The translations under genes were made by a program, and so were the position numbers. Of a DNA stretch of 64,000 nucleotides, positions 729 through 30,600 are shown in pieces. Under the pieces are notes generated by a model, which had not been told where the DNA came from, did no database searches, and was given only the letters and a program-made list of their open reading frames with translations. Position 1 is the stretch's first letter. The number at the start of each line of letters is the position of its first letter. The DNA comes from a virus. The stretch spans positions 31,290-95,289 of IMG/VR virus record IMGVR_UViG_3300034068_000566; one strand, given 5' to 3'.

Positions 729-2942
729 ATGGCAACTAGAATGCAACAGCGCAGAGGAACTGCAGCTCAGTGGATATCTTTAAATGATGGAGATGGCCCA
801 ATTCTTGCTGCTGGCGAAATTGGTTTTGAGAGCGATACTGGTCAGTTTAAGATCGGTAATGGAGTCAGCCATTGGACAGATCTTTCATATTTTAAAGACT
901 TTGGCGATCTAGGCGGATCATTAGACGACTATATTGAACTTACAGCTAAAGGAGCAGCATCTGGAGTTGCAGAACTCGATGCTACATTTAATGTTTTAAC
1001 AAAGACTGGCGTTGTTTTTGAAGGCGCTACAGCAAATGATTTTGAGACAACTTTACAGGTAACAGAGCCAACAGCTGATCGGGCTATCACACTTCCAAAT
1101 GCTACAGGAACAGTTGTTCTTGCAGATGGCAGCGGTAACGTAACAGTATCAGGAGACTTAACAGTATCAGGTACAACTACTATCATTGACAGCACAACAA
1201 TTAATGTTCAAAATAACATTAGATTTGAAGGAACAACACCAAATGATTTTGAGACAAGCTTAACAGCAGCAGATCCAACTGCAGACAGAACTATCACACT
1301 TCCAGATGCCACAGGAACAGTTGTTCTTGAAGATGGAACTCAAACACTATCTAATAAGACAATTAATTTAAATGCAAACACTTTAAACACTACTCTTGCT
1401 CAATTAAATACAGCAGTATCTGATGCCGATGTTGCTTCACTTGCTGGATCAGAAACATTAACTAATAAAACTTTAACATCTCCAAATGTTAATGAAGCAG
1501 TTGCTCTTACAGCAACATCTACAGAGTTAAATATTCTTGACGGAGCAACCGTAAGTGCTGCAGAACTAAATATTCTTGATGGCGTAACATCTTCAACCGC
1601 AGAACTAAATATTCTTGACGGTGTTACATCAACAGCTGCAGAATTAAACGTACTTGATGGAATTACTTCATCTACTGCAGAACTAAATATCCTTGACGGA
1701 GTAACAGCAACCGCAGCACAAATAAATGTTCTTGGAAGCCTAACTGCTACTGCAGCAGAATTAAACATTCTTGACGGTGTTACATCTACTACAGCAGAGA
1801 TAAACAAACTTTCTGGAGTAACCGCTACATCGGCTGAAATTAATACTTTGTCTGGAATTACTTCCACTGTTGCAGAATTAAATATTCTAGATGGTGCACT
1901 TTTATCTGTAACAGAATTAAACTATCTAGATGGTGTTACTTCTGCAATTCAAACACAGATTGATGCTAAAGCAGATACTGCTGCCCCTACATTTACAGGA
2001 ACAGTTGTTCTTCCATCTACAACATCAATTGGAACAGTAACCTCAACAGAATTAGGATATATTAGTGGAGTAACCTCAGCAATTCAAACTCAGATATCTG
2101 GAAAGCAATCAGTTGTTGCTAATGTTTCAGATGTTGAGATTGGATATTTAGATGGCGTTACTTCTCCAATTCAAACTCAATTAGGAAATAAGCAAGCAGT
2201 TGTTGCCAATGTTTCAGATACTGAAATAGGATACCTTGATGGAGTTACATCCGCAATTCAGACCCAACTTGACGCTAAACTAGCATCTGCAACAGCAGCA
2301 TCAACTTATGCCCCTCTAGTATCTCCAGCACTTACTGGAACACCTACAGCACCATTGGCAGTAACTGGAACTAATACAACGCAGGTTGCTACAACAAGTT
2401 TTGTACAGCAAGAACTTGCCGTATTAACAACTGGCGCACCAGCAGCACTAAATACGCTTGATGAACTGGCAGCAGCCCTAGGTGATGATGCTAACTATGC
2501 AGCTACAATTACAACAGCACTTGGAAATAAGGCTCCACTTGCCTCTCCTACATTTACAGGAACAGTTACTCTTCCTGCAGCAGGAATTGTATTTACAGAT
2601 GGCACACAAGCAAAAGAAGGTGTTCCTTCTCGTACACCAATTATTGCAAAGACAGATTCTTACACACTGTCAGCATTAACTGAAAGAGATTCATTGATTG
2701 AAGTTGCAAAAGCAACAGCAACAACAGTTACAATCCCAACAGATGCAACTCTAAACTTCCCAATTGGAACATCTATTGATATTCTTCAAACTGGAGCGGG
2801 ACAAGTAACGATTGCCCCAGTATCAGGAACAGTTACAGTCAATGCTACACCTGGATTAAAGCTTCGTACAACTTGGTCATCTGCAACTCTTCTTAAAAGA
2901 GCAGCAAATACTTGGGTTGTATTTGGCGATCTAACAGCGTAA
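729..2942 (+). CDS. Long tail fibre protein with Mtd_N-like N-terminal domain and internal repeats
   Basis: RMQQRRGTAAQW...LAAGEIGFESDTGQFKIGNG N-terminus; TAAELNILDGVTS and EIGYLDGVTSAIQTQ repeats; C-terminal FPIGTSIDILQTGAGQVT...WVVFGDL fibre domain; AAGGAG RBS. Confidence 0.85.
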   Translation: MATRMQQRRGTAAQWISLNDGDGPILAAGEIGFESDTGQFKIGNGVSHWTDLSYFKDFGDLGGSLDDYIELTAKGAASGVAELDATFNVLTKTGVVFEGATANDFETTLQVTEPTADRAITLPNATGTVVLADGSGNVTVSGDLTVSGTTTIIDSTTINVQNNIRFEGTTPNDFETSLTAADPTADRTITLPDATGTVVLEDGTQTLSNKTINLNANTLNTTLAQLNTAVSDADVASLAGSETLTNKTLTSPNVNEAVALTATSTELNILDGATVSAAELNILDGVTSSTAELNILDGVTSTAAELNVLDGITSSTAELNILDGVTATAAQINVLGSLTATAAELNILDGVTSTTAEINKLSGVTATSAEINTLSGITSTVAELNILDGALLSVTELNYLDGVTSAIQTQIDAKADTAAPTFTGTVVLPSTTSIGTVTSTELGYISGVTSAIQTQISGKQSVVANVSDVEIGYLDGVTSPIQTQLGNKQAVVANVSDTEIGYLDGVTSAIQTQLDAKLASATAASTYAPLVSPALTGTPTAPLAVTGTNTTQVATTSFVQQELAVLTTGAPAALNTLDELAAALGDDANYAATITTALGNKAPLASPTFTGTVTLPAAGIVFTDGTQAKEGVPSRTPIIAKTDSYTLSALTERDSLIEVAKATATTVTIPTDATLNFPIGTSIDILQTGAGQVTIAPVSGTVTVNATPGLKLRTTWSSATLLKRAANTWVVFGDLTA
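1510..2280 (+). repeat. Coding tandem repeats in the fibre shaft (13-aa ELNILDGVTSTAA units, then ~24-aa EIGYLDGVTSAIQTQ units)
   Basis: About 11 degenerate 39-nt units followed by longer related units, visible in both DNA and protein. Confidence 0.85.
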
Positions 2943-2972: not shown

Positions 2973-3959
2973 ATGGCATCAGGTAAAAAAATAGGCAAGA
3001 AGTCTCAAGCGTCAAATGACTTCTTAGAGCCAATGGCTCCTACTGGTGTAACAGCAACAAATGTTGGAACTGGAAGAGCCTTTAATAATGGAGCAGCTAC
3101 AGTTACATTTTCTTTGCCTGCACTATCTCCTGCTGCTTCATCATTTACTGTAACCTCATCACCTGGCGGATATACTGGCACTGGAGCATCTTCTCCAATT
3201 ACAGTAGCTGGACTTCAATCTGCCACAGCCTATACATTTACCGCAACAGCTACTAATGCTGCAGGAACATCTGTAGCCTCTTCTGCTTCAGCTTCTATTA
3301 CCGCAACAACAGTTCCAGCAACTATGTCTGCTCCAACCCCAACTGCTGGAGTTAATCAAAACTCAATTGCTTTTTCAGCACCAGCAACTGGTGGATCTAC
3401 AATTACAGGATTTACCGTAACAGGCTCTGATGGTACATCTGGAACTGGAGCATCTTCTCCAATTGTTATTGCAGACACTGGTGGAACTTCTCAGACATAT
3501 ACAGTTAGGGCAACTAATGCTAACGGTACTGGTTCAGCTTCATCTGCATCTGGATCTATTACCACTACCCCGCCATTTTTCCCACCATTCTTCCCACCTT
3601 TCTTCCCGTTCTTCCCACCATTCTTCCCTCCGTTCTTCCCTCCGTTCTTCCCACCATTCTTCCCATTCTTCCCGTTCTTCCCACCATTCTTCCCTCCGTT
3701 CTTCCCACCTTTCTTCCCACCATTCTTCCCATTCTTCCCACCATTCTTCCCACCTTTCTTCCCTCCATTCTTCCCACCGTTCTTCCCATTCTTCCCATTC
3801 TTCCCATTCTTCCCACCATTCTTCCCACCTTTCTTCCCACCTTCATTCCCATTCTTCCCTCCATTCTTCACAGCACCTTCTTGCCACACTTGCAATGGCT
3901 CTGATGCCTACTGGGGCTACTATGGCTGTGGTTACCCAGGAGAAGTTGTTTGCAACTAA
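2973..3959 (+). CDS. FN3-like domain protein with 100-aa Pro/Phe repeat and Cys-rich C-terminal tip (probable virion fibre/decoration protein)
   Basis: Two FN3-like repeats (APTGVTAT...GASSPITVAGL..ATAYTFTATATNAAG; PATMSAPT...YTVRATNANG), then (P)PFF x27, then CHTC...C...C; AGGAG RBS. Confidence 0.8.
   Translation: MASGKKIGKKSQASNDFLEPMAPTGVTATNVGTGRAFNNGAATVTFSLPALSPAASSFTVTSSPGGYTGTGASSPITVAGLQSATAYTFTATATNAAGTSVASSASASITATTVPATMSAPTPTAGVNQNSIAFSAPATGGSTITGFTVTGSDGTSGTGASSPIVIADTGGTSQTYTVRATNANGTGSASSASGSITTTPPFFPPFFPPFFPFFPPFFPPFFPPFFPPFFPFFPFFPPFFPPFFPPFFPPFFPFFPPFFPPFFPPFFPPFFPFFPFFPFFPPFFPPFFPPSFPFFPPFFTAPSCHTCNGSDAYWGYYGCGYPGEVVCN
3570..3869 (+). repeat. (PPFF/PFF)n low-complexity coding repeat
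   Basis: 300 nt: 18 PPFF, 8 PFF and 1 PPSF (46 P, 53 F, 1 S); Pro codons vary at the third position. Confidence 0.95.
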
Positions 3960-4007
3960 GCAGATATCAATGATTATGATATACTTGTATAAAGAAAAGG
4001 AGAACTA

Positions 4008-4454
4008 ATGATTAAAGATATTGATATTCAACATAGTTTTAGTAGAGATAAGTTAGCAGGAGCACCATTAGTATTTGTTATTGATGGGGAGTGTCTTTAT
4101 AATTTTAATGCAACACTTCCTGGCATTGACCTATTTACAAAAAATAAAGGCATTACAGATATATCTGCTGACTACCCAGAGCACGATGGGGCTACACTTC
4201 AAATTGTTAAAGAAAATGATGAAATTGAAGTCTATCAAACTAACGAATACTTTGGTTCAGTTTTACTAAGCAATCCAACAGTTCTTGATTTAAATGATTA
4301 TCCTTATGGACATCATGTTATGTCTCCAGATGCCTCATTTGATGGAGAAAAGTTTATTATTAAAAATAAAACGGTTGCTGAACATGTACGATTAACGGAA
4401 TGGCATATTCACAATCCTAAAAATCCAAATTATGTACCCCATCCAAACGTTTAA
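4008..4454 (+). CDS. Hypothetical protein, possibly a fibre-associated chaperone
   Basis: AAGGAG RBS and upstream TGATATACT; FVIDGE...VLLSNPTV...FDGEKF pattern resembles small proteins that follow phage fibre genes. Confidence 0.55.
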   Translation: MIKDIDIQHSFSRDKLAGAPLVFVIDGECLYNFNATLPGIDLFTKNKGITDISADYPEHDGATLQIVKENDEIEVYQTNEYFGSVLLSNPTVLDLNDYPYGHHVMSPDASFDGEKFIIKNKTVAEHVRLTEWHIHNPKNPNYVPHPNV

Positions 4455-4490
4455 TTTTTTTATTATATAATTACAACAAAGGAGTTTGTT

Positions 4491-4724
4491 TTGTCAGAAA
4501 AAAGCGCATGGGAAAAATATAAAGAAAAAAATGGGGTAACTCCACTAGATATGCTTAATCCACATACAAAGCGTATACCACATGAATCTGCTCAAAAAAG
4601 ATTTGATATTTGTAAGGAGTGTCCAGAATTAATAAAACTTACTTCTCAGTGTAAAAAATGTGGTTGTTTCATGAAAGTTAAGACTACTCTTGAGATTGCT
4701 AAATGCCCACTAAATAAGTGGTAA
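4491..4724 (+). CDS. Small Cys-rich metal-binding protein (DUF6171-like)
   Basis: R..IC..CPEL...QCKKCGCFM..K......CP..KW; AAGGAG RBS, TTG start. Confidence 0.7.
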   Translation: MSEKSAWEKYKEKNGVTPLDMLNPHTKRIPHESAQKRFDICKECPELIKLTSQCKKCGCFMKVKTTLEIAKCPLNKW

Positions 4725-4758
4725 CACTCGCTATATATTGCTTTAAATAGCACTTTTA

Positions 4759-4767
4759 TGCTATAAT
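4759..4767 (+). promoter_or_regulatory. Extended -10 promoter (TGCTATAAT) for the oxygenase cluster
   Basis: Consensus motif about 30 nt upstream of the ATG at 4798. Confidence 0.65.
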
Positions 4768-4797
4768 AAAACTATACCATTAAAAGATAGGAATCAC

Positions 4798-5517
4798 ATG
4801 CAAGCATATGATGAAAACGATAATCACTGGTTTACTAAAGATAGATCAGAAACAGCCTCAACAAGAATTTCCCGATTGATGCCTCAAAGTAATATCCCGA
4901 TTAGCAATCCAGGATTAGGTTTAAATATTTATCATAATGTTTTTTCAAAAGATGATTCAGATAGATATATCAATACTCTTGAGCACAATCTTTCAGGGGA
5001 TAATAAGTATAAGTGGTCTGAAGCACAGGTAACAAACTCTACTGTTCCAATCAAAAAAGCAAGAGATGCTGTAGACTTTAAATATAAGCAAGAAAATCTT
5101 GGTCCAAGAGATGAACATAATGCTGATCTGATTGATTTGCATGAAGAGATATATCAAAAACTAAAATTGTGCATAGATGATTATGCACACTACTGGGGAA
5201 TAAATGTTACATATTATGAAGCATTTAACTTTGTAAAGTATGAAGGTGAAGGAACTCACTTTAATATACATGCTGATCATGGTCCAGCTTATAATTGTAC
5301 TGTTTCTGCAGTAATTTATATTAATGATGATTACGAAGGTGGAGAAATTAAGTTTCCAAGATTAGATAATTTTGTTCATACCCCAAAGGTTGGAGATATA
5401 GCAATCTTTCCTTCAAACTATATATATGAGCATGCTTCTTTGCCAATGAAAACAGGAACAAAATATTGTGTTGTCATTATGACAGACATTAATCTTTTAG
5501 GTCACACAGGAAATTAA
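4798..5517 (+). CDS. 2OG-Fe(II) oxygenase, prolyl 4-hydroxylase-like (#1)
   Basis: HAD...YINDDYEGGEIKF...FPSN..YEH.....GTKY. Confidence 0.9.
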   Translation: MQAYDENDNHWFTKDRSETASTRISRLMPQSNIPISNPGLGLNIYHNVFSKDDSDRYINTLEHNLSGDNKYKWSEAQVTNSTVPIKKARDAVDFKYKQENLGPRDEHNADLIDLHEEIYQKLKLCIDDYAHYWGINVTYYEAFNFVKYEGEGTHFNIHADHGPAYNCTVSAVIYINDDYEGGEIKFPRLDNFVHTPKVGDIAIFPSNYIYEHASLPMKTGTKYCVVIMTDINLLGHTGN

Positions 5518-5530
5518 CATAGGAGAAAAT

Positions 5531-6202
5531 ATGAATACAGAAAATACAACATCAGCACCTTGGAGCAGCTATGAAGAGATTGCTCCAGGAATTTTTGTTT
5601 ACCACGACGTTCTGCCAACAGAATTAAACATTATTGATAGGCTGGAAGAGGTTTTGAATAATGACAGACCAAACTATAATTGGCAACCAGCCTATGTTGG
5701 TTATCAACAAAGAATGCCAGAGTATAGAGATTGCGTTGATTTTAAATTTAAGAAAACAGACATTGAAAGAGATGTATCTCCAGACTCCTTAAAACTTCAG
5801 GGCATTTGGCAAGACTGTTATGATAGACAAAAGTTAGCAGTAGAAGATTACTGCAGACGCTTTAATATTAATAACCTAAGATACTGGGAAGCTTTTAATT
5901 ACATTAAGTATGAGCCTGGTCAACACTTTATGGAACATCATGATCATGGATTTTCATATAACTGTACATTGTCTCTAGTTGCTTATATTAATGATAATTT
6001 TGAAGGCGGAGAATTATTCTTTAGACTTCAAGGAATTACGTATATTCCAAAAGCTGGGGATGTTGTATTGTTCCCATCTAACTTTATGTATCCACATCAA
6101 GCTAAGGTTGTTCATTCTGGGACAAAGTATTCTTTAGTAACAATGCTTGACTATAGCGATAAGTATCACACTCCAGAGATGTATCAAGAGACTGGATCAT
6201 AA
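5531..6202 (+). CDS. 2OG-Fe(II) oxygenase, prolyl 4-hydroxylase-like (#2)
   Basis: HHD...YINDNFEGGELFF...FPSNFMYPH.....GTKY; clear paralogue of #1 (RDxVDFK, EAFNxxKYE, DHG..YNCT). Confidence 0.9.
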   Translation: MNTENTTSAPWSSYEEIAPGIFVYHDVLPTELNIIDRLEEVLNNDRPNYNWQPAYVGYQQRMPEYRDCVDFKFKKTDIERDVSPDSLKLQGIWQDCYDRQKLAVEDYCRRFNINNLRYWEAFNYIKYEPGQHFMEHHDHGFSYNCTLSLVAYINDNFEGGELFFRLQGITYIPKAGDVVLFPSNFMYPHQAKVVHSGTKYSLVTMLDYSDKYHTPEMYQETGS

Positions 6203-6915
6203 TGTCAATTATCACTGCTTATAGAAAAACACCAATGGCATTGAATATAGAGCCAATGTCTATAAAAAGAGATTGGATGGATGAAACTCCACAGGGTCAT
6301 GCCTATAGATGTCATCCAGTCACATCTGCCAATGTTATTGGCTGGAGTATATCTTCACCAGTAGACATAAAGTTCATCTGGAATGGTGTTAATGATACAA
6401 GCGGAGATAATGTTACTATACTTGAAGGAAAAGAGTATGTTTATACTGGAAGAGGACAGTCAACAGTTAGTTTTAATACTGGATTTATTTTAAGAACAGA
6501 TGAAAAAACTAGCGTATTGACAATAACTCCACAAAACTATTTTAATGAAGATGTTGAGGTTATGTCCTCTCTCATATCTACTTCTTTTTTAAATACAGAT
6601 TTTCCCTTAGCAATTAAATGCAAGGTAGCAAATAAAGAAATTACTATTAAGGCAGGTTCACCCATAGCAACCATAATTCCTATCTCTTTAACTTCTTTAA
6701 AAGATGAGTCTGTAGAGATAGTCAACTTTGTACACACACAAGAATATTCTGATGCTTTAAACTCATATGGTAAAGCAGCTCAAGAAGTAAACCAGAGTGG
6801 AGAGTGGACTGACTGGTATAGAAATGCTGTAAATGAAAAAGGCGAGTCTATTGGATCACACGAAGTTAAAAATTTAAAATTAAACGTTATTGATAATACA
6901 GGAGGCAAACAGTGA
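6202..6915 (+). CDS. DUF6065-like protein
   Basis: RDWMDET..HAYRCHPV..AN..GW signature; GSPIATIIP. Confidence 0.7.
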   Translation: MSIITAYRKTPMALNIEPMSIKRDWMDETPQGHAYRCHPVTSANVIGWSISSPVDIKFIWNGVNDTSGDNVTILEGKEYVYTGRGQSTVSFNTGFILRTDEKTSVLTITPQNYFNEDVEVMSSLISTSFLNTDFPLAIKCKVANKEITIKAGSPIATIIPISLTSLKDESVEIVNFVHTQEYSDALNSYGKAAQEVNQSGEWTDWYRNAVNEKGESIGSHEVKNLKLNVIDNTGGKQ

Positions 6916-7637
6916 AGATCATTGAGTTTATAACTAATAGGCCTTGGCTAAATAAAGATAGTAAATCAAAGCCAATACCAATTTCAAGATCAATGCCACA
7001 GTGGTATAAAGAAGCTGATAGGTTTGCTAAAAAACCAGATGGAGAATATTGGATAGGACCAGACAAAGGAAAGATCCCTACATGGAAAGCCTGTCCTGCA
7101 ATTCTTGATATTTTAACAACTGGGTATAGCCTTGTAACCCCCTGTGATATAGAATTTTTCCTTGATGGCGCAGGGCAAATTGATGTTAAAACTGAAGATC
7201 CAATGTATAAAGATTTTGCTACAAGAAGAACTCCCATGCCACAATTTCGTCATCCAGAAGGATATTATAATTATCACTTTGCATGGATGCCAGATTGGGC
7301 AGTAAAGGTTCCAGATGGCTATAGCGTTTTATATGTTGCTCCATTTAATAGATACGATCTTCCAATTATGACAGTTTCTGGAATTATTGATAATGACAAA
7401 GTTAACTTGCCTGGATCTTTTCCATTTTTTGTACAAAAAGGTTGGACTGGAGTTCTTCCAGCAGGAACTCCTTATGCTCAGTTGCTTCCATTTTTGAGGG
7501 AAGATTGGAAATCCGAAATAACTGTTCCAACTGCTTCTGAAATGATGAATCATAATATAGAAAATAGTAAAAAATATCGTGTCCCAGATGGCGGAGTTTA
7601 TCAAAAAGAAGTCTGGACTAAGAGATTCTACGAATAG
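6912..7637 (+). CDS. DUF6065-related (possibly dUTPase-like fold) protein
   Basis: PQWYK...KACP.I.D...GY...PCD...PDGYS.L..P.N...SGIID.D...GTPYAQLLPF.RE.W pattern seen beside phage oxygenases. Confidence 0.6.
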   Translation: MKIIEFITNRPWLNKDSKSKPIPISRSMPQWYKEADRFAKKPDGEYWIGPDKGKIPTWKACPAILDILTTGYSLVTPCDIEFFLDGAGQIDVKTEDPMYKDFATRRTPMPQFRHPEGYYNYHFAWMPDWAVKVPDGYSVLYVAPFNRYDLPIMTVSGIIDNDKVNLPGSFPFFVQKGWTGVLPAGTPYAQLLPFLREDWKSEITVPTASEMMNHNIENSKKYRVPDGGVYQKEVWTKRFYE

Positions 7638-7641
7638 GAAA

Positions 7642-7650
7642 TGGTATAAT
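7642..7650 (+). promoter_or_regulatory. Extended -10 promoter, leaderless geometry
   Basis: TGGTATAAT then 5 nt then ATG at 7656; no SD between them. Confidence 0.65.
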
Positions 7651-7655
7651 AAAAC

Positions 7656-8336
7656 ATGAAACAAAATAACGAGTCGTACACAGTAGTTAAAAGAACACCA
7701 TCTATAACTCCATCTGGTTGGTTTGGAGATAGCAAAGACATGATTGTCGAGCTAGAAAATTTTATGACCCCAGAAGAGATTGAGTTTTTAGAAAAAGCTG
7801 CTAAGTCTTTGACAATTTGGGATGTAACTGAAAGCCATATGAATGAAAATGGGACTGTTACATATGACTCAAACTATTGGAAAGACAGAGTTGCTACTAG
7901 CCCAACATTAAATAAAAATGATCCAACCATCGCACCAGTAATTGCTGGATTATTTCAAAGATTAAAACCAATTGTTGAAGAATTTTATAAGGTAGAAGTC
8001 GTTCCAACTGGAACAACTATTGTTAAATGGCTTCCTGGACAATTTCAAAAACCTCATGCGGATAAAGAGTTACATGAAGGTCCTGATGCTGGAACTCCTA
8101 ATGACTTTCCAAATTATGACCTATCTAGTCTATTTTATTTAAATGATGACTATGAGGGTGGAGAATTATACTTTCCTATACAAGGTGTACAGTTTAAGCC
8201 TAAAAAAGGAGCTGCATACTTCTTCCCAGGAGATAAAAACTATATTCATGGAGTTACTGAAATCAAAAGTGGCCTAAGATTTACATGTCCATTTTTTTGG
8301 GAAATTACTAAGCATACAGGAGATAGGCAACCATAA
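7656..8336 (+). CDS. 2OG-Fe(II) oxygenase, P4H-like (#3)
   Basis: HAD...YLNDDYEGGELYF...FFPG..NYIHGV....GLRF. Confidence 0.9.
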   Translation: MKQNNESYTVVKRTPSITPSGWFGDSKDMIVELENFMTPEEIEFLEKAAKSLTIWDVTESHMNENGTVTYDSNYWKDRVATSPTLNKNDPTIAPVIAGLFQRLKPIVEEFYKVEVVPTGTTIVKWLPGQFQKPHADKELHEGPDAGTPNDFPNYDLSSLFYLNDDYEGGELYFPIQGVQFKPKKGAAYFFPGDKNYIHGVTEIKSGLRFTCPFFWEITKHTGDRQP

Positions 8337-9223
8337 TGACATATCCTTGGCCAAACAATAATAAACTTGAGTCAATAGAAATATATCCAAATATTGTTGT
8401 GTACAAAAATCTTTTTAAAGATATTGAAAAATCTTATAAAATTTTAACAGATTCTTTATCAGAAACAGAAGATGGTTTGTTTAATCCTTGGACCACTTGG
8501 TCTGTTTTTGGGGAATACTTAAATCCAATAACTCCTCAATTTTCAATGAATGATAGATATGGAAATATGAAAGATGTAGAAACATCAACAGAAACGCAAG
8601 AAAATCATAAAAACTTTGTAATTGAAATGATGGACAATTTTTATTTAGCTACAGAAGACTATATCAAGAGCCATAATTTAGACGTAGATTTAGATGCAAT
8701 GTCTATAAATGATGATGGGAATCCTATTCCAACATGGAGATGGGCTGGTGGAACTATAGGTAAATATCATGTAAGTAATGAAGACAGTAGAGTTGGAATG
8801 AACTATCATTCAGACTATATAAGAGAGCAAGGTCATACCCCAGGTTATAAGTTTGTAATAACATCTACAATATATTTTAATGATAACTATGAGGGTGGAG
8901 AAATTGATTTTGCAATGGGAGACAAGCTTGTAAAGTATAAACCAGAAGCAGGAGATGTTTTAGTTTTTCCATCAGGGCACCCAGACTATCTGACAGAAGA
9001 AGGAAAACCATATTTACATGGAGTTATGCCATCATATAAAAATAATAAGTTTTTGTCAAGAATGTATTGGCAAAAATATCAAAAAGGAACTGATGATTGG
9101 TATGAAAAAGAAAAAGAGTTTGGAAAAGATGTTTGGGCGGAAATGCAAAAAGATTTAGACGAACAGTTTAGACTAAAGCACCCGCAAAGAGCTGTAATAG
9201 AAAATGGAGTAAGAATACAATGA
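8336..9223 (+). CDS. 2OG-Fe(II) oxygenase, P4H-like (#4)
   Basis: HSD...YFNDNYEGGEIDF...FPSG...YLHGV.....NKF. Confidence 0.88.
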   Translation: MTYPWPNNNKLESIEIYPNIVVYKNLFKDIEKSYKILTDSLSETEDGLFNPWTTWSVFGEYLNPITPQFSMNDRYGNMKDVETSTETQENHKNFVIEMMDNFYLATEDYIKSHNLDVDLDAMSINDDGNPIPTWRWAGGTIGKYHVSNEDSRVGMNYHSDYIREQGHTPGYKFVITSTIYFNDNYEGGEIDFAMGDKLVKYKPEAGDVLVFPSGHPDYLTEEGKPYLHGVMPSYKNNKFLSRMYWQKYQKGTDDWYEKEKEFGKDVWAEMQKDLDEQFRLKHPQRAVIENGVRIQ

Positions 9224-9978
9224 ACCTAGAGAATAAAGTTAGGCTAACAAAAGACATAGTTGTTTATAAAAATTTTATAAGCAAAGAGGATTGTCAAAAG
9301 ATGATTCAAGCATTAGATGCTCAGGCAGATAATGGTGCACTCTCTTGGATGCCTATTTCATTTTATGAATCATACTCTTCTGTCCTTCCACAAGACAATG
9401 ATCAAGAGTTGCTTGATGCTGAACTATCTCCAACTATTTTTTCAGACATTGAAAAAACAATGCCAGAGGCAATTGCTTCAGTTCATGACTTAGATCCAAA
9501 GACAATTTCTAAGATTGGATACCATACACAAAAGTGGGAGCCAGGAGCATACGCAAGAATTCACTCTGATAATACAGATGCTCAAGGAAATTCAGGAGCA
9601 TTTACAAGAAGTCGTTATGCAGGGTTCCTATATCTAAACGATGACTTTGAAGGGGGACTGCTTAAGTTTCCAAGTCATAACATAGAGATTAAACCAGAAG
9701 TTGGAATGCTTGCTGTTTTTGACGGGGGATTTAGCAACATGCACGAAGTCTCCCTAATAGAAAGTGGAGTAAGATATACCATTGGATCTTTTTGGGATGA
9801 CAGAGAAGAAGATGCTTACCCACAAGAATTAAGAGATGCCTGGGCTGCAGAAATGAAAGAGACTAGAGCAAAACAAGAAATTGAAAGAGCCGAATGGCAA
9901 GATCTTTTAAAAGAAGGATGGAAGTTGGATGCTGCTGGAAATAAATATAAGGTAGAAGATTTAGGGAATAATGTCTAA
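9220..9978 (+). CDS. 2OG-Fe(II) oxygenase, P4H-like (#5)
   Basis: HSD...YLNDDFEGGLLKF...MHEV....GVRYT. Confidence 0.9.
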   Translation: MNLENKVRLTKDIVVYKNFISKEDCQKMIQALDAQADNGALSWMPISFYESYSSVLPQDNDQELLDAELSPTIFSDIEKTMPEAIASVHDLDPKTISKIGYHTQKWEPGAYARIHSDNTDAQGNSGAFTRSRYAGFLYLNDDFEGGLLKFPSHNIEIKPEVGMLAVFDGGFSNMHEVSLIESGVRYTIGSFWDDREEDAYPQELRDAWAAEMKETRAKQEIERAEWQDLLKEGWKLDAAGNKYKVEDLGNNV

Positions 9979-10630
9979 TTTTCTAACAAGCATACTAAAA
10001 GAAAATAATTTTCAGGTTGAAGAAGTTACTGATGATATTGTTTTAGTTAAAGATTTTTTTTCTAAAGATGATCTAGATCAAGTTTTTAATATTATAGACT
10101 CAACTCCAAATGAAGAGTGGTTTATAGAATATCATGCTAACTTAAAAAACTTTTGTATGCAAAAATTTGGCAGAGATGATGTTGATAATTTAGTTGCAGA
10201 AGGTAAATTTGAAATAACTCAAAACTGGCAAGATAAAAATTTAAATATAGGACAACACCCATTTCAAAAAACCTTGTTCGATAGACTAAATAATTTAGTT
10301 CAAAATGTTGACAACACAATAGAGTTAAGTGGTTTTGCAACTATTCAAAGGATGCAAGAGGGTGTCGAGTTAAAAGCTCACACAGATCAAGATACAGATC
10401 CATCGATTAGGTACGCTGCCATTCTGTATTTAAATAATGATTATGTTGACGGAGAGTTGTTTTTTCCAAACAATGGCTTAGAGTTTAAGCCTGATCCTGG
10501 GTCAATGCTTATTTTTCCAGGCACAGCAGAATATAATCATGGAGTAAAGCATGTAGGTCCAGGACCAATTAGATATGTTTTGGTTGGATTTATTAAGGTT
10601 AAAAATTTTTATGATAACAATAAATACTAA
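9971..10630 (+). CDS. 2OG-Fe(II) oxygenase, P4H-like (#6)
   Basis: HTD...YLNNDYVDGELFF...FPG...YNHGV.....IRY. Confidence 0.9.
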   Translation: MSNFLTSILKENNFQVEEVTDDIVLVKDFFSKDDLDQVFNIIDSTPNEEWFIEYHANLKNFCMQKFGRDDVDNLVAEGKFEITQNWQDKNLNIGQHPFQKTLFDRLNNLVQNVDNTIELSGFATIQRMQEGVELKAHTDQDTDPSIRYAAILYLNNDYVDGELFFPNNGLEFKPDPGSMLIFPGTAEYNHGVKHVGPGPIRYVLVGFIKVKNFYDNNKY

Positions 10631-10641
10631 AGGAGAAATAA

Positions 10642-11373
10642 ATGAATAAAGAACTACTAGACCCAAAGGTATACTATTATACTGACGCAATTGAAAATTT
10701 TGACAAATTTAAACAAGTTTGGAAAGAGTTAGACACTCTTGAGCAATATGATGAGTTAGGGGTAAATGTTTGGAACCCTTGGACATCTTCTAACGATAAA
10801 ACTTTTATCTACGGAGAAACAAAAACTTTTGATGCTAATGCAATAAGCAATCTTAGTGGAGATGTAGCAGAAAAAAGTAAATATATTTATGATGCCGTTA
10901 TGACTACAATGTATAATGTTTGTAAAGACTATGCATCCTCTATGGGAGACTTTGATGAGCCAAGACTTTTTCCAACATTTAACATAAAAAAGTACAATAC
11001 TGGAATGGCTATGGGGGCGCACTTTGATCAACTCGATGGCGATAAGACATTGAGATATTCTTTGGTAATGTATTTAAACGATGACTGTGAAGGCGGAGAA
11101 ATTTCTTTTCAGTTAAAGGACTATGATGGTGGATGGACTAGCTCAGAAGGTTGGGTAAGTGGCGCACCAGCAGTAGAGTTAGACTATGATCTTGCAGTTG
11201 CAAACAAAGCTATTAGTTTTGGTGTAAAACCTAAAGAAAATAGCGTTGTAATATTTCCAGCATATGCTCCATATTTTCACACGGCACACACAGTTAAGTC
11301 TGGCGTAAAGTATATGATTCCTGGACATTGGATCCATAACAATATGGAGCTTAATCAAAGCCAGAGCATGTAA
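10642..11373 (+). CDS. 2OG-Fe(II) oxygenase, P4H-like (#7)
   Basis: HFD...YLNDDCEGGEISF...FPA..PYFHTAH...GVKY. Confidence 0.9.
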   Translation: MNKELLDPKVYYYTDAIENFDKFKQVWKELDTLEQYDELGVNVWNPWTSSNDKTFIYGETKTFDANAISNLSGDVAEKSKYIYDAVMTTMYNVCKDYASSMGDFDEPRLFPTFNIKKYNTGMAMGAHFDQLDGDKTLRYSLVMYLNDDCEGGEISFQLKDYDGGWTSSEGWVSGAPAVELDYDLAVANKAISFGVKPKENSVVIFPAYAPYFHTAHTVKSGVKYMIPGHWIHNNMELNQSQSM

Positions 11374-12042
11374 TTGAAAACAGCAATTGTAACTGGAGCA
11401 AGTAAGGGTGTTGGATTAGCAACAGTTAAGCGCTTGTCTGAAAATGGGTATAAAGTAATTGCTGTTTCAAGAAACCTTTCAAAAGTCTCTGAACTAATAT
11501 CTGATAATGTTGAGGTATATAATCTAGACATTACAGACTCTAAAGCAATAGAAGTGTTCTTTGAAAAATACAAAGACATTACTTTAGACCTTTTAGTTAA
11601 TAATGCTGGAGGAGGGTCAGGCCCAACTCATATTATTAATGAGACTCCAGAAAACTTTAGAAAAGCTTATGATATAAATGTAACTGGCCCTATGTACCTA
11701 TCTCAACTATTTGCTCCATGTATGGAAAAGTCAGAGTCTCCAACAATTATCTTTATTACTTCTTTTGGAGGAAAGGTACCATATCGTGGTGGAGGAAACT
11801 ATACAAATGCGAAGAGAGGTGAACGTGGTCTTATTGATACAATGAGACTTGAGTTTCCTCAATTTGGGATTAAGATTACAGAAATCTGTCCAGCAACTAT
11901 TGATACCCAAGAACAAAAACGGGATCAAGCATTAACCGCAGAAGATTTAGCAGAAGCAATTTACTGGGTAGGATCATTACCAAGTCATGTTAATATAAAT
12001 GAAATTGAAATCTGTCATATTCACAGCAGCAAGTATGGTTAA
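11374..12042 (+). CDS. Short-chain dehydrogenase/reductase (YdfG-like, NADP-type)
   Basis: TGASKGVG, LVNNAG, catalytic S...YTNAK, LPSHVNINEI C-terminus. Confidence 0.9.
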   Translation: MKTAIVTGASKGVGLATVKRLSENGYKVIAVSRNLSKVSELISDNVEVYNLDITDSKAIEVFFEKYKDITLDLLVNNAGGGSGPTHIINETPENFRKAYDINVTGPMYLSQLFAPCMEKSESPTIIFITSFGGKVPYRGGGNYTNAKRGERGLIDTMRLEFPQFGIKITEICPATIDTQEQKRDQALTAEDLAEAIYWVGSLPSHVNINEIEICHIHSSKYG

Positions 12043-12204: not shown

Positions 12205-14190
12205 ATGTCAGATGTTTTTTCATTTCGTTTATCAGAGGATTTTGTAACAAAATATAGTAATACTCCAGCACCGTTTGGATTTGCAGATGCGGGGGAAAAC
12301 TCTTTAGGAGAAATTACTTTTATTCGTACCTATTCTCGTGTAAAAGAAGACGGAACAAAAGAACGTTGGCACGAAGTTTGTCGTCGTGTTATTGAAGGCA
12401 TGTATTCAGTTCAAAAAAATCATGCTAAAGATAATCGTCTAGGCTGGAATGACAATAAAGCTCAGAAGTCTGCACAAGAAGCATTCCAAAGAATGTTTGA
12501 ATTAAAGTGGACCCCTCCAGGTCGTGGTATGTGGACATTTGGAACAGCCATGACTATGGAAAAGAAAAACTCAGCAGCGCTACAAAACTGTGCAATGGTT
12601 TCTACAAAAGACCTTGACAAGAATGATCCAGGGGCTTTGTTTGCTTGGGTTATGGATGCCTTAATGCTTGGTATTGGTGTAGGGTTTGACACAATAGGAC
12701 AAGAGAAGAATTTTTCTATTTATGCTCCAACAGAACCAGCAGTTATCTTTGAAATTCCAGATACTCGTGAGGGCTGGGTAGAATCAGTACGTATACTATT
12801 AAACTCTTACCTAAGATCAAATCAACCTATCCAAAAGTTTAATTATGACCTTATCAGACCTCTAGGAGCACCAATTAAGGGCTTTGGAGGGGTCGCTAGC
12901 GGTCCAGCACCACTCATTGCATTACACGATAAGATCAATCATGTCATAGGCTCTAGAGCAGGGGAAATCCTAGATTCTCGTGCTATTACAGACATCGTCA
13001 ACCTTATTGGAACATGTGTTGTTTCAGGAAATGTCCGTCGTTCTGCAACCTTAGCTTTAGGTGCTCCAGGAGATGAAGATTTTATTAATTTAAAAAACCC
13101 AGAAGTATTCCCAGAACGTAACTCCTATGATTCAGATAATCCAGGATGGGCATGGATGTCTAATAATTCTATTGCAGCAACAGTTGGAATGGATTATGAA
13201 AAATATACAGATTTAATTGTAAACAATGGAGAGCCAGGTTTTATTTGGCTTGATGTTGCTCGTAACTATGGTCGTCTTGCAGATCCAGCGGATGGAAAAG
13301 ACTATCGTGTTATGGGCTTTAATCCTTGTGCGGAGCAGCCATTAGAATCATACGAACTTTGTACACTTGTAGAAGTGCACTTAAACCGTCATGATTCCAA
13401 GACTGTAACTCTTCTTCCAACACATTGGCAGCAAACAAACGGTATTATGCAACGCAACCGTCGTATTGGTACATCTCTTACTGGTATTGCATCATTTGCA
13501 GATCAAAATGGATTACCAATTGTTCGTGAATGGATGGACGAAGGTTATAACAAGATACGTTATTATGATAAAAAATATTCAGAGTGGTTGTGTGTTCGTG
13601 AATCAATTCGTGTAACAACTGTTAAGCCATCTGGATCAGTTTCAATTCTTTCTGGTGCAACCCCTGGGGTTCACTGGGGACCTGGAGGAAACTTCTTCCT
13701 TCGTGCTATTCGTTTTGGAAACACAGATCCAATGCTTCATTTGTTTAAAGCAGCAGGGTATAAAATTGAAGACGATCTAGTATCAGCAAACACATCAGTA
13801 GTTTATTTCCCAGTTAAATCAGGTCATCCAAGATCTGAAAAGGATGTAACCCTGTTTGAAAAGATAAACCTTGCTGCAACAGCTCAAAAGTATTGGTCTG
13901 ACAATGGAGTATCTGTAACTCTATCCTTTGATAAGGAGACAGAGTCAAAGCATGTTCCAACAGTTTTGCATATGTACGAGGGACAACTAAAGGCAGTATC
14001 ATTCCTTCCAATGGGAAATCATACTTATCCACAACAGCCATATACTCAGATCACAGAAGAAGAATATGATTACTATGTTGGTCGTATCGGTCATATTGAT
14101 TTCTCTGCTATTTATGACGGGGTAGATAATCTTGAGGCACTTGGCGAAAGCTATTGCACTACAGACTACTGTGAGATTAAAATTAAATAG
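12205..14190 (+). CDS. nrdJ: Class II (adenosylcobalamin-dependent, monomeric RTPR-type) ribonucleotide reductase; apparent internal ~15-aa deletion
   Basis: RTYSR, PPGRG, ALQNC, GNVRRSA, NPCAEQPL..YELCTL, TTVKPSGSVS, C-terminal CTTDYC; no small-subunit gene adjacent. Confidence 0.92.
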   Translation: MSDVFSFRLSEDFVTKYSNTPAPFGFADAGENSLGEITFIRTYSRVKEDGTKERWHEVCRRVIEGMYSVQKNHAKDNRLGWNDNKAQKSAQEAFQRMFELKWTPPGRGMWTFGTAMTMEKKNSAALQNCAMVSTKDLDKNDPGALFAWVMDALMLGIGVGFDTIGQEKNFSIYAPTEPAVIFEIPDTREGWVESVRILLNSYLRSNQPIQKFNYDLIRPLGAPIKGFGGVASGPAPLIALHDKINHVIGSRAGEILDSRAITDIVNLIGTCVVSGNVRRSATLALGAPGDEDFINLKNPEVFPERNSYDSDNPGWAWMSNNSIAATVGMDYEKYTDLIVNNGEPGFIWLDVARNYGRLADPADGKDYRVMGFNPCAEQPLESYELCTLVEVHLNRHDSKTVTLLPTHWQQTNGIMQRNRRIGTSLTGIASFADQNGLPIVREWMDEGYNKIRYYDKKYSEWLCVRESIRVTTVKPSGSVSILSGATPGVHWGPGGNFFLRAIRFGNTDPMLHLFKAAGYKIEDDLVSANTSVVYFPVKSGHPRSEKDVTLFEKINLAATAQKYWSDNGVSVTLSFDKETESKHVPTVLHMYEGQLKAVSFLPMGNHTYPQQPYTQITEEEYDYYVGRIGHIDFSAIYDGVDNLEALGESYCTTDYCEIKIK

Positions 14191-27625: not shown

Positions 27626-30600
27626 ATGGCAGATATAAATAGCAATATTTTAATTAATATTGATACAACGCAGGCTATGTCCGCACTACGTGGGCTAGAC
27701 AAGCAGATATCTGCACTTAACCGCTCCATGATCGTCGGCACTAAGGCTGCTTCATTAGCTCAAGCTGACTTTGCAAAATCACTACTTCATAATGTTAATG
27801 CCACGGGCATGTTTAATGCCTCAATGGGCAAGATGTCTACTTCTACGGATCAGTTTTCAAAACGTTTAGAAGCTGGCAAACTATCTCTTCGTGAATACTA
27901 CCGATATGGAATGGCATCAACTAAAACATTTGGAAAAAATTACGGTAGAGAATTTCAAACAATTAGCAACCTTGCTGAAAAAAGAGTTAAGGCTCTTCAA
28001 AGCCAGTATGTCCAACTAGGTAAAGACGCACAGGGCGCAATACGCTCAATGCGAATTACACCAAAAGCACTAAATTATAACGACGCACTAACAAGAATGT
28101 CAATGACTATTCAACGTCAACAGATAATGAATAAGCTGCTTGACGATGGTGCTACAAAACTTCTTAACTTTGGTAAAAATACACAGTGGGCTGGTCGTCA
28201 GCTTATGGTTGGTTTTACAATTCCATTGGCCATGTTTGCAGGATCAGCAATAAAAGCATTTAAAGAAATTGAAACTCAGGCAGTTAGATTTAAAAAGGTT
28301 TATGGCGACATCTTTACAACACAAGATGACACTGATAAAGCTCTTAAAAACATGAAGGATATTGCTAAAGAATATACAAAGTATGGACTTAAAGTTTCTG
28401 AAACAATCAAGATGGCTGCAGATGCAGCAGCAGCAGGTAACTCAGGCCAACAGCTTGAAACTGTAGTAAAGCAAGCAAGCAAGCTAGCAGTTCTTGGTGG
28501 AGTAGCACAGGACAAAGCCTTAGAAACAACAATTGCTTTACAGAACGCATTTCAAATTGGCAGTGGTGAACTTGGTAAAACGATGGACTTTCTCAACTCT
28601 GTTGAAAACCAAACTGTTTTAAGTCTTGAGGATTTATCTAATGCAATTCCAAGAGTTGCTCCAGTTATTAAACAGCTTGGCGGAGATGTAAAAGATTTAG
28701 CATTCTTCCTTACAGCAATGAAAGAAGGTGGTATCAGTGCAGAGCAAGGAGCTAACGCACTTAAGTCTGGTCTTGCATCTTTAATTAATCCATCAAAAGC
28801 AGCAACTGAAGCAACTTCAAAGCTAGGCATTAACCTTAAGGGAATTATTGAAAGCAATCAGGGTAACTTAAAAAATACTGTTGTTTCTTTTGCTCAAGCA
28901 TTACAACCACTAACAGACCTACAAAGAGCACAAACAATTGAAAAAGTTTTTGGCAAGTATCAGTTTTCAAGAATCTCAGCACTTTTAAATAACGTAACAA
29001 AAGAAGGAAACCAAGCAAGCAGAGTTTTAAAATTGGCATCTGCATCTGCAGAAGAGTTAGCGCTGTTATCTGAACGAGAATTAAAAACACAGGAATCATC
29101 TCCTATGTATAAAATGCAGGCAGCAATTGAGAAACTAAAAGCATCTATTGCTCCAATTGGTGAATTGTTTGCAAAGGTGTTAACTCCAGTTATTAATTTC
29201 TTTGTTAACCTGTTTGATAAATTTAACAATGCTCCAGAAGGCATTAAAAAAGCAGTAGCAATTATCGTAGCAGCTGTAGCTGGTATTGGTCCAGTTCTTC
29301 TTATGACTGTTGGTCTTGTTGCTAATGGTTTAGCCAACCTAATGAAAATGTTTAACCTTATTCGTAAAGGTTTTCAAGGCTTAGCTTATGGATCAAAAGA
29401 TGCAGCCCTTGGAACACAGTACCTCAGCAATGAGGAGCTAGAAAATATTGCTGTATCAAACAGTCTTGCAACAGCTCACAAATCTTTGTCTTCCGCATAT
29501 GTCCTTGAGTCGGCAAGCCTTGTTGCCTTAACTAATGCTTACAGAGAAGCAAAAGTTGCAATGTCTAGTTTTGCTAGTACAAACCCTGGAATGTTTATGC
29601 CAAGCAGGGGCAGAGTTACCCCTCCAAGACGTTTTGCTAAGGGTGTAACAAGTGTTCCTGGAACAGGTAATAAAGATACTACCCCAGCCCTTCTAACCCC
29701 TGGAGAAGCCGTTATTCCTGCTGACATGGCTAAAAAGTATGCACCATTTATTGGACAGATGATTGACGGAACCCTTCCAGGCCACATGGCTGGAAGAATG
29801 CCATTATTTTTGGGTATGCCAAAAACTATTAAAGCAGTAACAGATCAACGTAAAGCAAGAATGACAATGGAAGAGATTGCAAAAGCAACAGAAGCAAGTA
29901 GATTTGGAAAGATGGACCCTACTGATTTTGGTGTACAACTTGAGGCAACCACAGGTCGTTCATTCCCAGTACGAGGAGTTGGCGGTTTATATCAAAAGCC
30001 AGATGGGACAAAGGTATTCGTTAAACCAATGCTCGATGAGACTGCTGCTTTAGCAGAACTAAGAGCAACTACTATTGCAAGAGAAGCACACGGACTAAAT
30101 GCACCTCAACAAACAATTCGCACAATGATTGATCCGACTGATCCATTAAAGAAAAGAAAACTTATTGCATTAGAAGCACCGTACAATCCTGAGTTTGCTA
30201 AGCCAACTGGAAAGTTTTCAAAAGACGAATACTTTAGACAACTAGTTGCCTCTGGATTAAGAGGAGATAAAGATTTGCAGGTGGCCAATCTATCAGGAAA
30301 TAACCTAGTAGATGTTGGACCAGCAGGTGTATTTAGTGCAGCATCTGGTCTAAGATCATATGCAAAAACTATGCCATCTGTTGAAGATCAGGTTCGTATA
30401 AACTTACTTGGTGTAAAGGGTTCAAATACAAGAAGATTCTTTGCTGAAGAAACAACCAATATTCCAAAGGGAATGACTCCTCAAGCATACAACCAAGCAA
30501 TGGTAGACGAAATAGATTTGGTTTTGCCTAAACTTAGAAAGACAATAAAAGGCTTTGGTGATTTAAATCCAGAAGAACAAGGTATTTATCAAAACATGAT

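Follow-up and report, generated by a model that had tools for sequence, protein, structure and literature searches.

A Pro-Phe polymer encoded beside a cassette of prolyl-hydroxylase-like oxygenases in the fibre module of lake phages: a candidate substrate and its enzymes

We analysed a window of 64,000 nucleotides, bases 31290-95289 of the 95,289-bp IMG/VR virus record IMGVR_UViG_3300034068_000566, for which completeness is estimated at 88%. Near the start of the window a tail-fibre gene is followed, after a spacing of 30 nt, by a gene for an FN3 protein which ends in a long polymer of proline and phenylalanine. Two small open reading frames (ORFs) come next, and then a packed run of genes (4798-12042) that codes for seven oxygenases of Pfam family PF13640, a DUF6065 protein, a remote relative of DUF6065 and a short-chain dehydrogenase/reductase (SDR). 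All coordinates are given in Table 1. The plus strand holds every gene in the first 18 kb of the window. Among the nine junctions from oxygenase 1 to the SDR, five are overlaps of 1-8 nt, one abuts, and three are gaps of 11-18 nt. A preliminary description of this locus, made from the DNA letters, had listed an FN3 protein directly after the tail-fibre gene and a tightly packed run with seven 2-oxoglutarate (2OG)-Fe(II) oxygenases, their HxD...H triads intact, and one SDR, and all of this was borne out. Comparison with related phages suggests that the Pro-Phe polymer is the substrate of the adjacent cassette of prolyl 4-hydroxylase (P4H)-like enzymes, and we consider this reasonably probable.

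The N-terminal ~198 aa of the polymer protein are FN3-like (Pfam fn3 E 1.2e-5, 25.8 bits at a cut-off of 25). The polymer comprises residues 200-299, all but one of them Pro or Phe (99 of 100). It had been described as 100 consecutive Pro/Phe residues; the composition stands, while the longest unbroken run is 91 residues (200-290), followed by one Ser and 8 more Pro/Phe. On its C-terminal side there is a 29-aa end with 4 Cys. The Pro codons of the repeat vary at the third base (CCA 29, CCT 10, CCG 7). Length differences in contigs from lake metagenomes are 3-nt indels, by which one Pro codon is gained or lost in frame, and a single such event interconverts PPFF and PFF. The third-base variation of the Pro codons and the 3-nt indels mark the reading frame of the repeat as a real coding frame. 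Of the 52 Phe codons in the repeat, 51 are TTC, compared to 12% TTC (88% TTT) in 13 neighbouring genes, which may be due to avoidance of T6 runs or to the spread of one 12-nt unit. The polymer does not contain any Gly and hence no collagen-type Gly-X-Y triplets.

Each of the seven oxygenase ORFs passes the PF13640 cut-off of 27 bits, with scores of 33-47 bits. The HxD...H triad is invariant across the seven (alignment A2; H158, D160 and H212 of oxygenase 1) and also in the orthologue alignments A4 and A5 of oxygenases 2 and 3. At position +10 from the distal His, all seven have Lys or Arg, the residue which binds the C5 carboxylate of 2OG in P4H structures. When compared to solved structures, the oxygenase 2 profile (A4) is closest to the P4H of Bacillus anthracis (3itq, E 4.2e-6), followed by lysyl hydroxylase LH3 (E 2e-3), and even the single sequence reaches the B. 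anthracis P4H with E 2e-4. The oxygenase 3 profile (A5) is closest to prolyl 3-hydroxylase 1 (P3H1; 8k0e, E 1.1e-10), followed by the B. anthracis P4H (3e-7) and the P4H of chlorovirus PBCV-1 (9e-4). The fold test covers oxygenase 3 alone, whose AlphaFold2 (AF2) model (pLDDT 91.1) is a double-stranded beta-helix nearest to solved prolyl hydroxylases. Its best Foldseek match is the PBCV-1 prolyl hydroxylase (5c5t, E 8.6e-11, TM 0.69 normalised to target), and the other top matches are 2jig, 3itq, 8k0f and PHD2, which include algal and bacterial P4H as well as P3H1. The earlier assignment of these oxygenases to the P4H-like family agrees with the top solved relatives, which are peptidyl prolyl or lysyl hydroxylases. 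Oxygenases 3 and 2, the two core enzymes of the cassette (see below), are by profile closest to peptidyl prolyl 3- and 4-hydroxylases.

The start of the DUF6065 gene overlaps the stop of oxygenase 2. Two DUF6065-like proteins had been proposed for the locus. The first is a clear family member by Pfam; the second, which we call dufB, has no Pfam match and is connected to the first only by hhalign, so that it appears to be a remote relative which by Pfam's rule is outside the family. The AF2 model of the DUF6065 protein (pLDDT 85.7) matches many dUTPases in Foldseek (E 5e-5). With VIA-align, dUTPases are found at Z 9.7-8.8, with root mean square deviations of 2.7-5.6 Å over 115-130 residues (4.5 Å over 119 residues for the top score, Z 9.7), at a sequence identity of 8-16%. 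The predicted fold of DUF6065 is dUTPase-like. We have not filed the protein as a dUTPase because its invariant residues (R23, W25, M26, T29, H33, A34, Y35, C37, P39, N44 and others) are, by eye, unlike the dUTPase motifs. In dufB, a GIIDxDK is retained which, again by eye, is reminiscent of dUTPase motif 3. A predicted complex of oxygenase 2 and DUF6065 had a score of 0.00, which weighs neither for nor against binding.

The dUTPase-like fold raises the question of nucleotide or DNA modification, where dUTPase-fold proteins, the ribonucleotide reductase (RNR) that adjoins the cassette and TET/JBP-like oxygenases would together make a modified base. There are indeed weak Tet_JBP matches for oxygenase 3 (E 9e-5) and oxygenase 6 (E 6e-3). 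However, at 22 and 16 bits these stay far under the cut-off (34.9), and PF13640 is always the better match. Prolyl hydroxylases rank first by fold and by profile, TET-like enzymes being found only at E 0.05, and the residue pattern of DUF6065 just described does not fit either. As the RNR gene stays in place when the cassette is absent, it is considered to be only a neighbour. We regard the synthesis of a modified base as very improbable.

The SDR translation shows TGASKGVG (TGxxxGxG) and Y-T-N-A-K (YxxxK), the classical SDR motifs. This gene also ends the cassette in relatives.

The association between repeat and enzymes was searched for in both directions. A degenerate DNA pattern for PPFFPPFFPPFF matches more than 120 viral contigs, and upon translation these represent a large family of proteins with (PP[FY]F)n tails (PPxF proteins). 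In 79 of 115 repeat loci an oxygenase homologue is found within the short flank, at a median gap of 351 bp, and of the 85 repeat ORFs that share their locus with an oxygenase, 80 are at most 3 kb away from it. Most whole PPxF records (44 of 49) carry PF13640 genes, mostly in 6-11 copies. From the enzyme side, a DUF6065 alignment retrieved 581 viral contigs with DUF6065 relatives, and the best 78 loci were analysed. A PP[FY]F ORF is present in 64 of these 78 loci, and all 14 loci which lack it are cut at the contig edge. In uncut cassettes among the same 78 loci, the PP[FY]F ORF is directly upstream and on the same strand in 20 of 20 cases. Co-occurrence of (PPFF)n proteins with the oxygenase/DUF6065 set had been put forward as the check to be made across phage genomes, and it is found whichever partner is used as the query; the case that would speak against it, cassettes without a Pro-rich protein, was not encountered for this cassette, given that the 14 exceptions are incomplete.

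The core of the cassette has the order fibre, PPxF protein, oxygenase-3 type, oxygenase-2 type, DUF6065. This order is kept at a DUF6065 identity of only 22-33% and also holds across repeat proteins with unrelated N-terminal domains, from short ones of 125 aa to FN3, PASTA and large multidomain proteins; the oxygenase-3 type gene is often on the opposite strand. Tail-fibre homologues sit 5′ of the PPxF gene in most related loci. In the lineage of the window the core has been supplemented by the SDR, by dufB and by five more oxygenases (1 and 4-7). The PPxF repeat rides on N-terminal parts that are unrelated to each other, namely short domains of ~70 aa, FN3 pairs, PASTA domains and large multidomain proteins. 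The module also occurs in records without a detectable relative of the capsid protein of this phage, with implied genomes of ~110-215 kb, and is therefore not confined to one backbone.

The C-terminal ends of PPxF proteins differ and may be simple Lys, Cys-rich knots or Hint-like domains. In many relatives (L014, L041, L051, L075, L099, L119 and others) the repeat is followed by a Hint-like domain starting with Cys ('C..EDT..'), and judging from its sequence this domain could cleave itself off, leaving the repeat as the C-terminal end. A self-cleaving domain after the repeat in some relatives, together with Cys-rich ends and a repetitive, precursor-like gene beside tailoring enzymes, is what might be expected of a pathway resembling that of ribosomally synthesised and post-translationally modified peptides (RiPPs), in which the Pro-Phe repeat or the Cys-rich end is tailored and then released as a peptide. 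The preliminary description had mentioned such a released peptide, and we have given it up as extremely improbable: in a Pfam analysis of all ORFs in 2973-12042 the matches, besides FN3, are confined to PF13640, DUF6065, DUF6171 and an SDR, so that there is neither a classical RiPP enzyme nor a protease, a transporter or an element for leader recognition, and no leader-like feature was seen in the region. Moreover, the N-terminal part consists of two FN3 domains beside a fibre gene, which is typical of virion decoration, and the C-terminal ends are not conserved among relatives.

The strongest new evidence comes from natural tail swaps within one backbone, found among phages with a major capsid protein at least 79% identical and the gene order fibre, FN3 protein, cassette (if present), RNR, 1237-aa protein, portal. 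Four of these (G050, G053, G054, G061) have a PPxF tail, and in all four there are 4-7 adjacent oxygenases between the FN3 gene and the gene for the RNR or the 1237-aa protein. In other members the FN3 orthologue keeps its FN3 part and swaps the tail, which is then of type (GAF)n, (FTPFG)n, (YNY/FYN)n or (GVFGFGPF)n (L312:2977-4521, L314:2761-4092, L313:9036-9815(-), L306:4169-4891). The pattern PPxFPPxF is absent throughout G057, G058, G059, G060 and G063. At the locus, one dufB-like gene accompanies the (GAF)n tail of G058 (100% complete) and likewise the (FTPFG)/(GAF)n tail of G060; there is no oxygenase with the (YN)n tail of G059; and the (GVFGFGPF)n tail of G063 (100% complete) has one PF13640 oxygenase and a 224-aa protein. 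The latter was at one point guessed to be a further oxygenase, which was dropped in view of the lack of a Pfam match. In sister phages without the cassette, the RNR gene follows almost directly 3′ of the FN3 gene. The (GAF)n forms carry a further C-terminal domain after the repeat. Some of the sister tails are reminiscent of nucleoporin FG repeats.

We counted FN3 orthologues for which at least 6 kb of downstream sequence are available. All 32 orthologues with Pro-Pro tails have one or more oxygenases, while only two of the six with tails devoid of any Pro-Pro doublet have one, and then as a single gene. One orthologue (L386) falls below the Pro-Pro cut-off: its tail is a Pro-rich PFF repeat with just two Pro-Pro doublets, and it has six oxygenases. 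Single-proline tails (FTPY, FSPFG) have no oxygenase. Since sister phages have either both the polymer and the enzymes or neither, the enzymes probably act on the polymer as their substrate. An adjacent oxygenase is lacking where the tail is rich in Phe but devoid of Pro-Pro, as in (GAF)n and (FTPFG)n, and we thus consider the Pro-Pro doublet, not Phe, to be the likely target; since single-proline tails lack oxygenases as well, the rule seems to be Pro-Pro rather than Pro. The dufB-like genes, in turn, stay with the (GAF)n tails in G058 and G060, so that the DUF6065 family seems to belong with the aromatic tail or the FN3 protein, and not with hydroxylation in itself.

It had been suggested that the enzymes hydroxylate Pro and/or Phe of the repeat. 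For Pro, comparative linkage and co-variation point in this direction; for Phe they do not. Beta- or ring-hydroxylation of Phe by all or part of the oxygenase set, instead of or besides Pro hydroxylation, would make use of a residue which accounts for half of the polymer, and would give work to seven paralogues, more than are needed for two proline positions. 2OG oxygenases which hydroxylate side chains other than Pro exist, and in relatives the Phe of this phage is often replaced by Tyr (PPYF versus PPFF). Nevertheless, the (GAF)n and (FTPFG)n tails are without an oxygenase at the locus in otherwise syntenic phages, and the core enzymes have prolyl hydroxylases as their closest matches among solved structures, which makes a Phe target improbable.

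Several observations weigh against the polymer as the substrate. Tail type changes just three times on the FN3 tree, and the contrast that involves L386 is an artefact produced by the Pro-Pro cut-off. The raw counts largely come from relatives of common ancestry; there are 2-3 independent switches, and a sign/independent-pairs test is powerless (median p 0.5), with a consistent direction. The Pro-Pro rule is a post hoc refinement, and there is no ready explanation of why a two-letter repeat should be accompanied by seven paralogues. Phages could also swap the block in its entirety, as a fibre cassette, even if its members were not related as enzyme and substrate. In addition, near-complete relatives without PPxFPPxF carry 2-6 PF13640 genes at other loci, which shows that these phages also use such enzymes on other targets. 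One example is a separate locus of G063 (L305:1025-6938) with a GT8 glycosyltransferase gene, two dufB-like genes, two P4H-like oxygenases and a gene for an unassigned protein of 287 aa; a second GT8-like gene is encoded on the other strand. This composition hints at a hydroxylation-plus-glycosylation system with another target. Finally, the genome that contains the window encodes one more oxygenase, the eighth, and a collagen-like protein, both of them upstream of the window and remote from the repeat.

These additional genes were annotated on the full record. The eighth P4H-like oxygenase (196 aa, G000:C1:18350-19583, L208:4351-5584, -) is found beside a weak match to FkbM-type methyltransferases and at a distance from both repeat genes; it scores 25.7 bits against PF13640 on the called ORF, below the cut-off of 27, and 27.4 bits in a six-frame search of the genome. 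The collagen-like protein (251 aa, G000:C1:22374-23129, L208:8375-9130, +; PF01391 E 8e-10) has ~17 Gly-X-Y triplets, several with Pro at Y (X-Pro-Gly), and is a possible extra target of a P4H-like enzyme, as far as sequence features go. A 358-aa protein encoded 5′ of the collagen-like gene has (GAD)n repeats. Also upstream of the window there is a second PPxF protein (473 aa, G000:C1:25301-26722, L208:11302-12723, +) with a PASTA-like N-terminus, PPFF/PPYF linkers between repeated domains and a Cys-rich end. Its gene is preceded by that for a 208-aa protein which shares the C-terminal domain of the tail fibre encoded at 729-2942. We examined whether a collagen-like protein might be the general substrate and rejected this. 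Of 48 PPxF records, no more than 11-16 have a collagen-like gene, and such genes are absent from records that are 76-83% complete and hold 8-9 oxygenases; with most records lacking them, the cassette is not accounted for by collagen-like proteins.

The observations above raise the alternative that the block is a co-inherited host-range cassette, the oxygenases of which act on another virion protein, on a host surface or host protein, or on a small molecule. Points in its favour are the small number of independent switches behind the co-variation, the PF13640 genes kept elsewhere by PPxF-free relatives (with the G063 pair adjoining dufB-like and GT8 genes), and, in the genome of the window itself, a collagen-like protein that offers the classical P4H target, X-Pro-Gly triplets. 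It is also consistent with the Caulobacteraceae, where DUF6065 stands alone in contigs of metagenome-assembled genomes (MAGs; L215-L222), with neither oxygenases nor PPxF genes, so that the family has a role outside the module; a DUF6065 match was also obtained in Caulobacter vibrioides, which served as control genome. The DUF6065 clusters in ESM Atlas are 63-94% viral. Mere co-inheritance does not account well for an adjacency that is kept down to ~27% identity, in genomes of different size and with N-terminal domains that are unrelated, nor for the number of oxygenases at the locus, which tracks the Pro-Pro content of the tail while fibre, RNR and portal stay put. The scarcity of collagen-like genes in PPxF records, including the 76-83% complete ones with 8-9 oxygenases, also argues against it. 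On balance we consider a co-inherited cassette with an unrelated target unlikely, and retain the Pro-Phe polymer as the preferred substrate.

Table 1. Features at the fibre module and its oxygenase cassette, in window coordinates.
Feature	Position	Strand	Basis
Tail-fibre protein, 737 aa	729..2942	+	Pfam Mtd_N E 4.9e-11; many PHROG tail-fibre families, best E 6.8e-24
FN3-(PPFF/PFF)n-Cys-tail protein, 328 aa, proposed substrate	2973..3959	+	Pfam fn3; repeat count
Pro/Phe polymer, residues 200-299	3570..3869	+	99/100 residues P or F; 18 PPFF and 8 PFF units
148-aa protein, accessory	4008..4454	+	No Pfam or PHROG match; counterpart in only 5 related loci (BLAST)
DUF6171 small Cys-rich protein, 77 aa	4491..4724	+	Pfam DUF6171 E 8.1e-7; phrog_13558 E 1e-17
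Oxygenase 1, 239 aa, P4H-like, lineage-specific addition	4798..5517	+	PF13640 E 2.3e-10; Lys at +10
Oxygenase 2, 223 aa, core enzyme	5531..6202	+	PF13640 E 3.7e-12; 5′ of DUF6065 gene in all lineages, usually directly
DUF6065 protein, 237 aa, core partner	6202..6915	+	PF19541 E 2.4e-32, 112.8 bits (cut-off 26.6)
dufB, putative remote DUF6065 relative, 241 aa	6912..7637	+	No Pfam match; hhalign A1 vs A3 probability 96.9%, E 1.5e-10
Oxygenase 3, 226 aa, core enzyme	7656..8336	+	PF13640 E 7.6e-9; adjoins PPxF gene in minimal modules
Oxygenase 4, 295 aa, P4H-like	8336..9223	+	PF13640 E 3.7e-8; catalytic motifs
Oxygenase 5, 252 aa, P4H-like	9220..9978	+	PF13640 E 1e-7; catalytic motifs
Oxygenase 6, 219 aa, P4H-like	9971..10630	+	PF13640 E 2.5e-10; catalytic motifs
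Oxygenase 7, 243 aa, P4H-like, 30-residue insert in barrel	10642..11373	+	PF13640 E 1.2e-9; alignment A2
SDR, 222 aa, last gene of the cassette in this lineage	11374..12042	+	adh_short E 1.4e-40, 139 bits
Class II (B12) RNR, downstream boundary, outside the system	12205..14190	+	Pfam RNR_Alpha E 1.3e-31

The neighbourhood of the cassette is that of a virion structural region. Inside the tail-fibre gene there is a 39-nt (13-aa) repeat in ~7 copies ('AELNILDGVTS..', window 1528-1798). The DUF6171 gene is a frequent neighbour of PPxF genes and was found in 29 PPxF loci. The RNR gene is followed by a gene for a structural-looking protein of 1237 aa and then by portal, protease and major capsid genes. 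Very long ORFs occur in the structural region, with 3654 aa (window 27626-38590) and 1533 aa (39192-43793).

With respect to operon structure, promoter-like sites show no excess over shuffled sequence and no terminator-like site was found between the plus-strand genes, both of which are uninformative. Many runs from lake-water metagenomes contain this stretch nearly whole. In three lake metatranscriptome runs there are partial contigs of this phage or its close relatives, which cover parts of the FN3 gene, the section from DUF6171 to oxygenase 1, oxygenase 5 and the SDR. We do not take these as proof of expression because DNA carry-over is possible and coverage is patchy. Searches for cultured relatives in 50,697 phage records by megablast with the region and by tblastn with the repeat protein and with DUF6065 gave no match, where it has to be kept in mind that the BLAST low-complexity filter masks the Pro/Phe repeat in such searches. 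As to the host, the RNR has its best phage match (60%) in an actinobacterial phage, a WhiB gene was not found in the genome, and related contigs have been binned in MAGs of Acidimicrobiaceae, Chitinophagaceae and Cyclobacteriaceae.

Going beyond the genes, catalytic motifs, folds, linkage and co-variation observed above, we infer a scheme that covers the substrate, the positions at which it is modified, what DUF6065 and the SDR do, and which function the modified tail has. The FN3 protein would be a fibre-associated virion protein and the cassette its maturation module, in which the adjacent P4H-like 2OG/Fe(II) oxygenases would hydroxylate prolines of the C-terminal Pro-Phe polymer post-translationally. 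The ancestral core would consist of an oxygenase-3 type enzyme, which is P3H1- and chlorovirus-like, an oxygenase-2 type enzyme, which resembles bacterial P4H, and DUF6065. A pair of P3H-like and P4H-like enzymes would fit the modification of both prolines in each Pro-Pro doublet; in collagen, 3-hydroxyproline (3-Hyp) precedes 4-hydroxyproline (4-Hyp). The expanded set of this lineage, with its extra paralogues and a second DUF6065-like protein, may extend this chemistry, and the SDR could further oxidise the new hydroxyl group. The product might be a hydroxyproline-rich, extensin-like polyproline-II rod, or a sticky, adhesive tail, carrying a small Cys-rich tip. Hydroxylation would render a very hydrophobic polymer soluble and stiff.

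Taken as a whole, the picture would be that of a multi-enzyme pathway of lake phages which converts a ribosomally made Pro-Phe fibre polymer into an extensin-like Hyp rod, with Pro-Pro becoming 3-Hyp/4-Hyp that is maybe oxidised by the SDR. DUF6065 would then be a new type of partner which handles aromatic tails, and tail chemistry would be exchanged as a unit together with the matching enzymes, PPFF with hydroxylases and (GAF)n with DUF6065-like genes alone. In this full extent the scheme is tentative and rather less probable than not.

Phage genes for 2OG-Fe(II) oxygenases are usually labelled as auxiliary metabolic genes with an unknown substrate. For a large group of lake phages (at least 581 contigs with the DUF6065 marker) there is now a concrete candidate substrate which is easily synthesised, and a minimal enzyme set has been defined that consists of the oxygenase-3 type, the oxygenase-2 type and DUF6065. 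If our reading is true, bacterial viruses would have a counterpart to the chlorovirus P4H and to extensin-type rods, and DUF6065 would gain a first functional context. It would also represent a new principle of virion maturation and host-range variation, with tail chemistry and enzymes being exchanged as units. The Pro-Phe polymer and the (GAF)n, (YN)n and (GVFGFGPF)n tails are also of interest as natural aromatic low-complexity virion materials. A search of the available literature found no description of this phage system, and we know of no earlier report on protein hydroxylation of a bacteriophage's own virion protein.

Among known systems, the 2OG-Fe(II) oxygenases of marine T4-like cyanophages belong to the same Pfam superfamily and include the nearest homologues in cultured phages (~30% identity), and their role is likewise unexplained. 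However, in a Synechococcus phage and in a related Methylophilales phage the oxygenase gene is alone among small early genes, and there is no PPxF in the genome. In view of these two cultured-phage records, our finding should not be transferred to the cyanophage oxygenases as it stands.

The P4H of Bacillus anthracis (3itq, 5hv0) is a single-domain bacterial enzyme of P4H type that acts on peptide prolines, and it is the best sequence match of oxygenase 2. The similarity is very low, though, and it is encoded by a lone gene rather than by an array; its reported targets, according to PDB titles, are collagen-like peptides and EF-Tu. In the collagen system, P3H1 (8k0e) and P4H form a pair of prolyl hydroxylases that act on neighbouring prolines, which is paralleled by the oxygenase-3 type being nearest to P3H1 and the oxygenase-2 type nearest to P4H. 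In contrast to collagen, the phage polymer has neither Gly-X-Y nor a triple helix, there are no CRTAP, PPIB and PDI partners, and the enzymes are single-domain proteins of 220-295 aa, for which the regiochemistry given above is a proposal. In plant extensins, consecutive prolines beside aromatics are hydroxylated, which results in stiff polyproline-II rods. Extensins and other hydroxyproline-rich glycoproteins are the best functional analogy for the proposed product. Extensins differ in using Ser-Pro(3-5) with Tyr cross-links and in requiring arabinosylation, while the phage cassette does not have a glycosyltransferase (GT8 genes occur beside oxygenase/dufB pairs at the other locus of G063).

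The closest precedent is found in PBCV-1, the P4H of which hydroxylates the virus's own (Pro-Ala-Pro-Lys)n repeats (Eriksson et al. 1999, as cited in PMC3634087). This enzyme, vCPH (5c5t), and the phage system have in common that a small P4H-type enzyme is encoded by a virus which also encodes Pro-rich tandem repeats, the substrate in PBCV-1 and the proposed substrate in the phages. PBCV-1 differs in that it infects a eukaryotic alga and uses a single enzyme on (Pro-Ala-Pro-Lys)n, and its sequence relation to oxygenase 3 is remote (profile E 9e-4). The phages have 2 to 11 paralogues and a Pro-Pro-aromatic-Phe repeat, encoded by adjacent genes in a fibre module that also contains DUF6065 and an SDR. 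What is new in comparison with PBCV-1 is thus the occurrence in a bacteriophage, the Pro-Pro-aromatic-Phe repeat, an array of enzymes beside the gene for their proposed substrate in a fibre module, and a partner protein with a predicted dUTPase fold.

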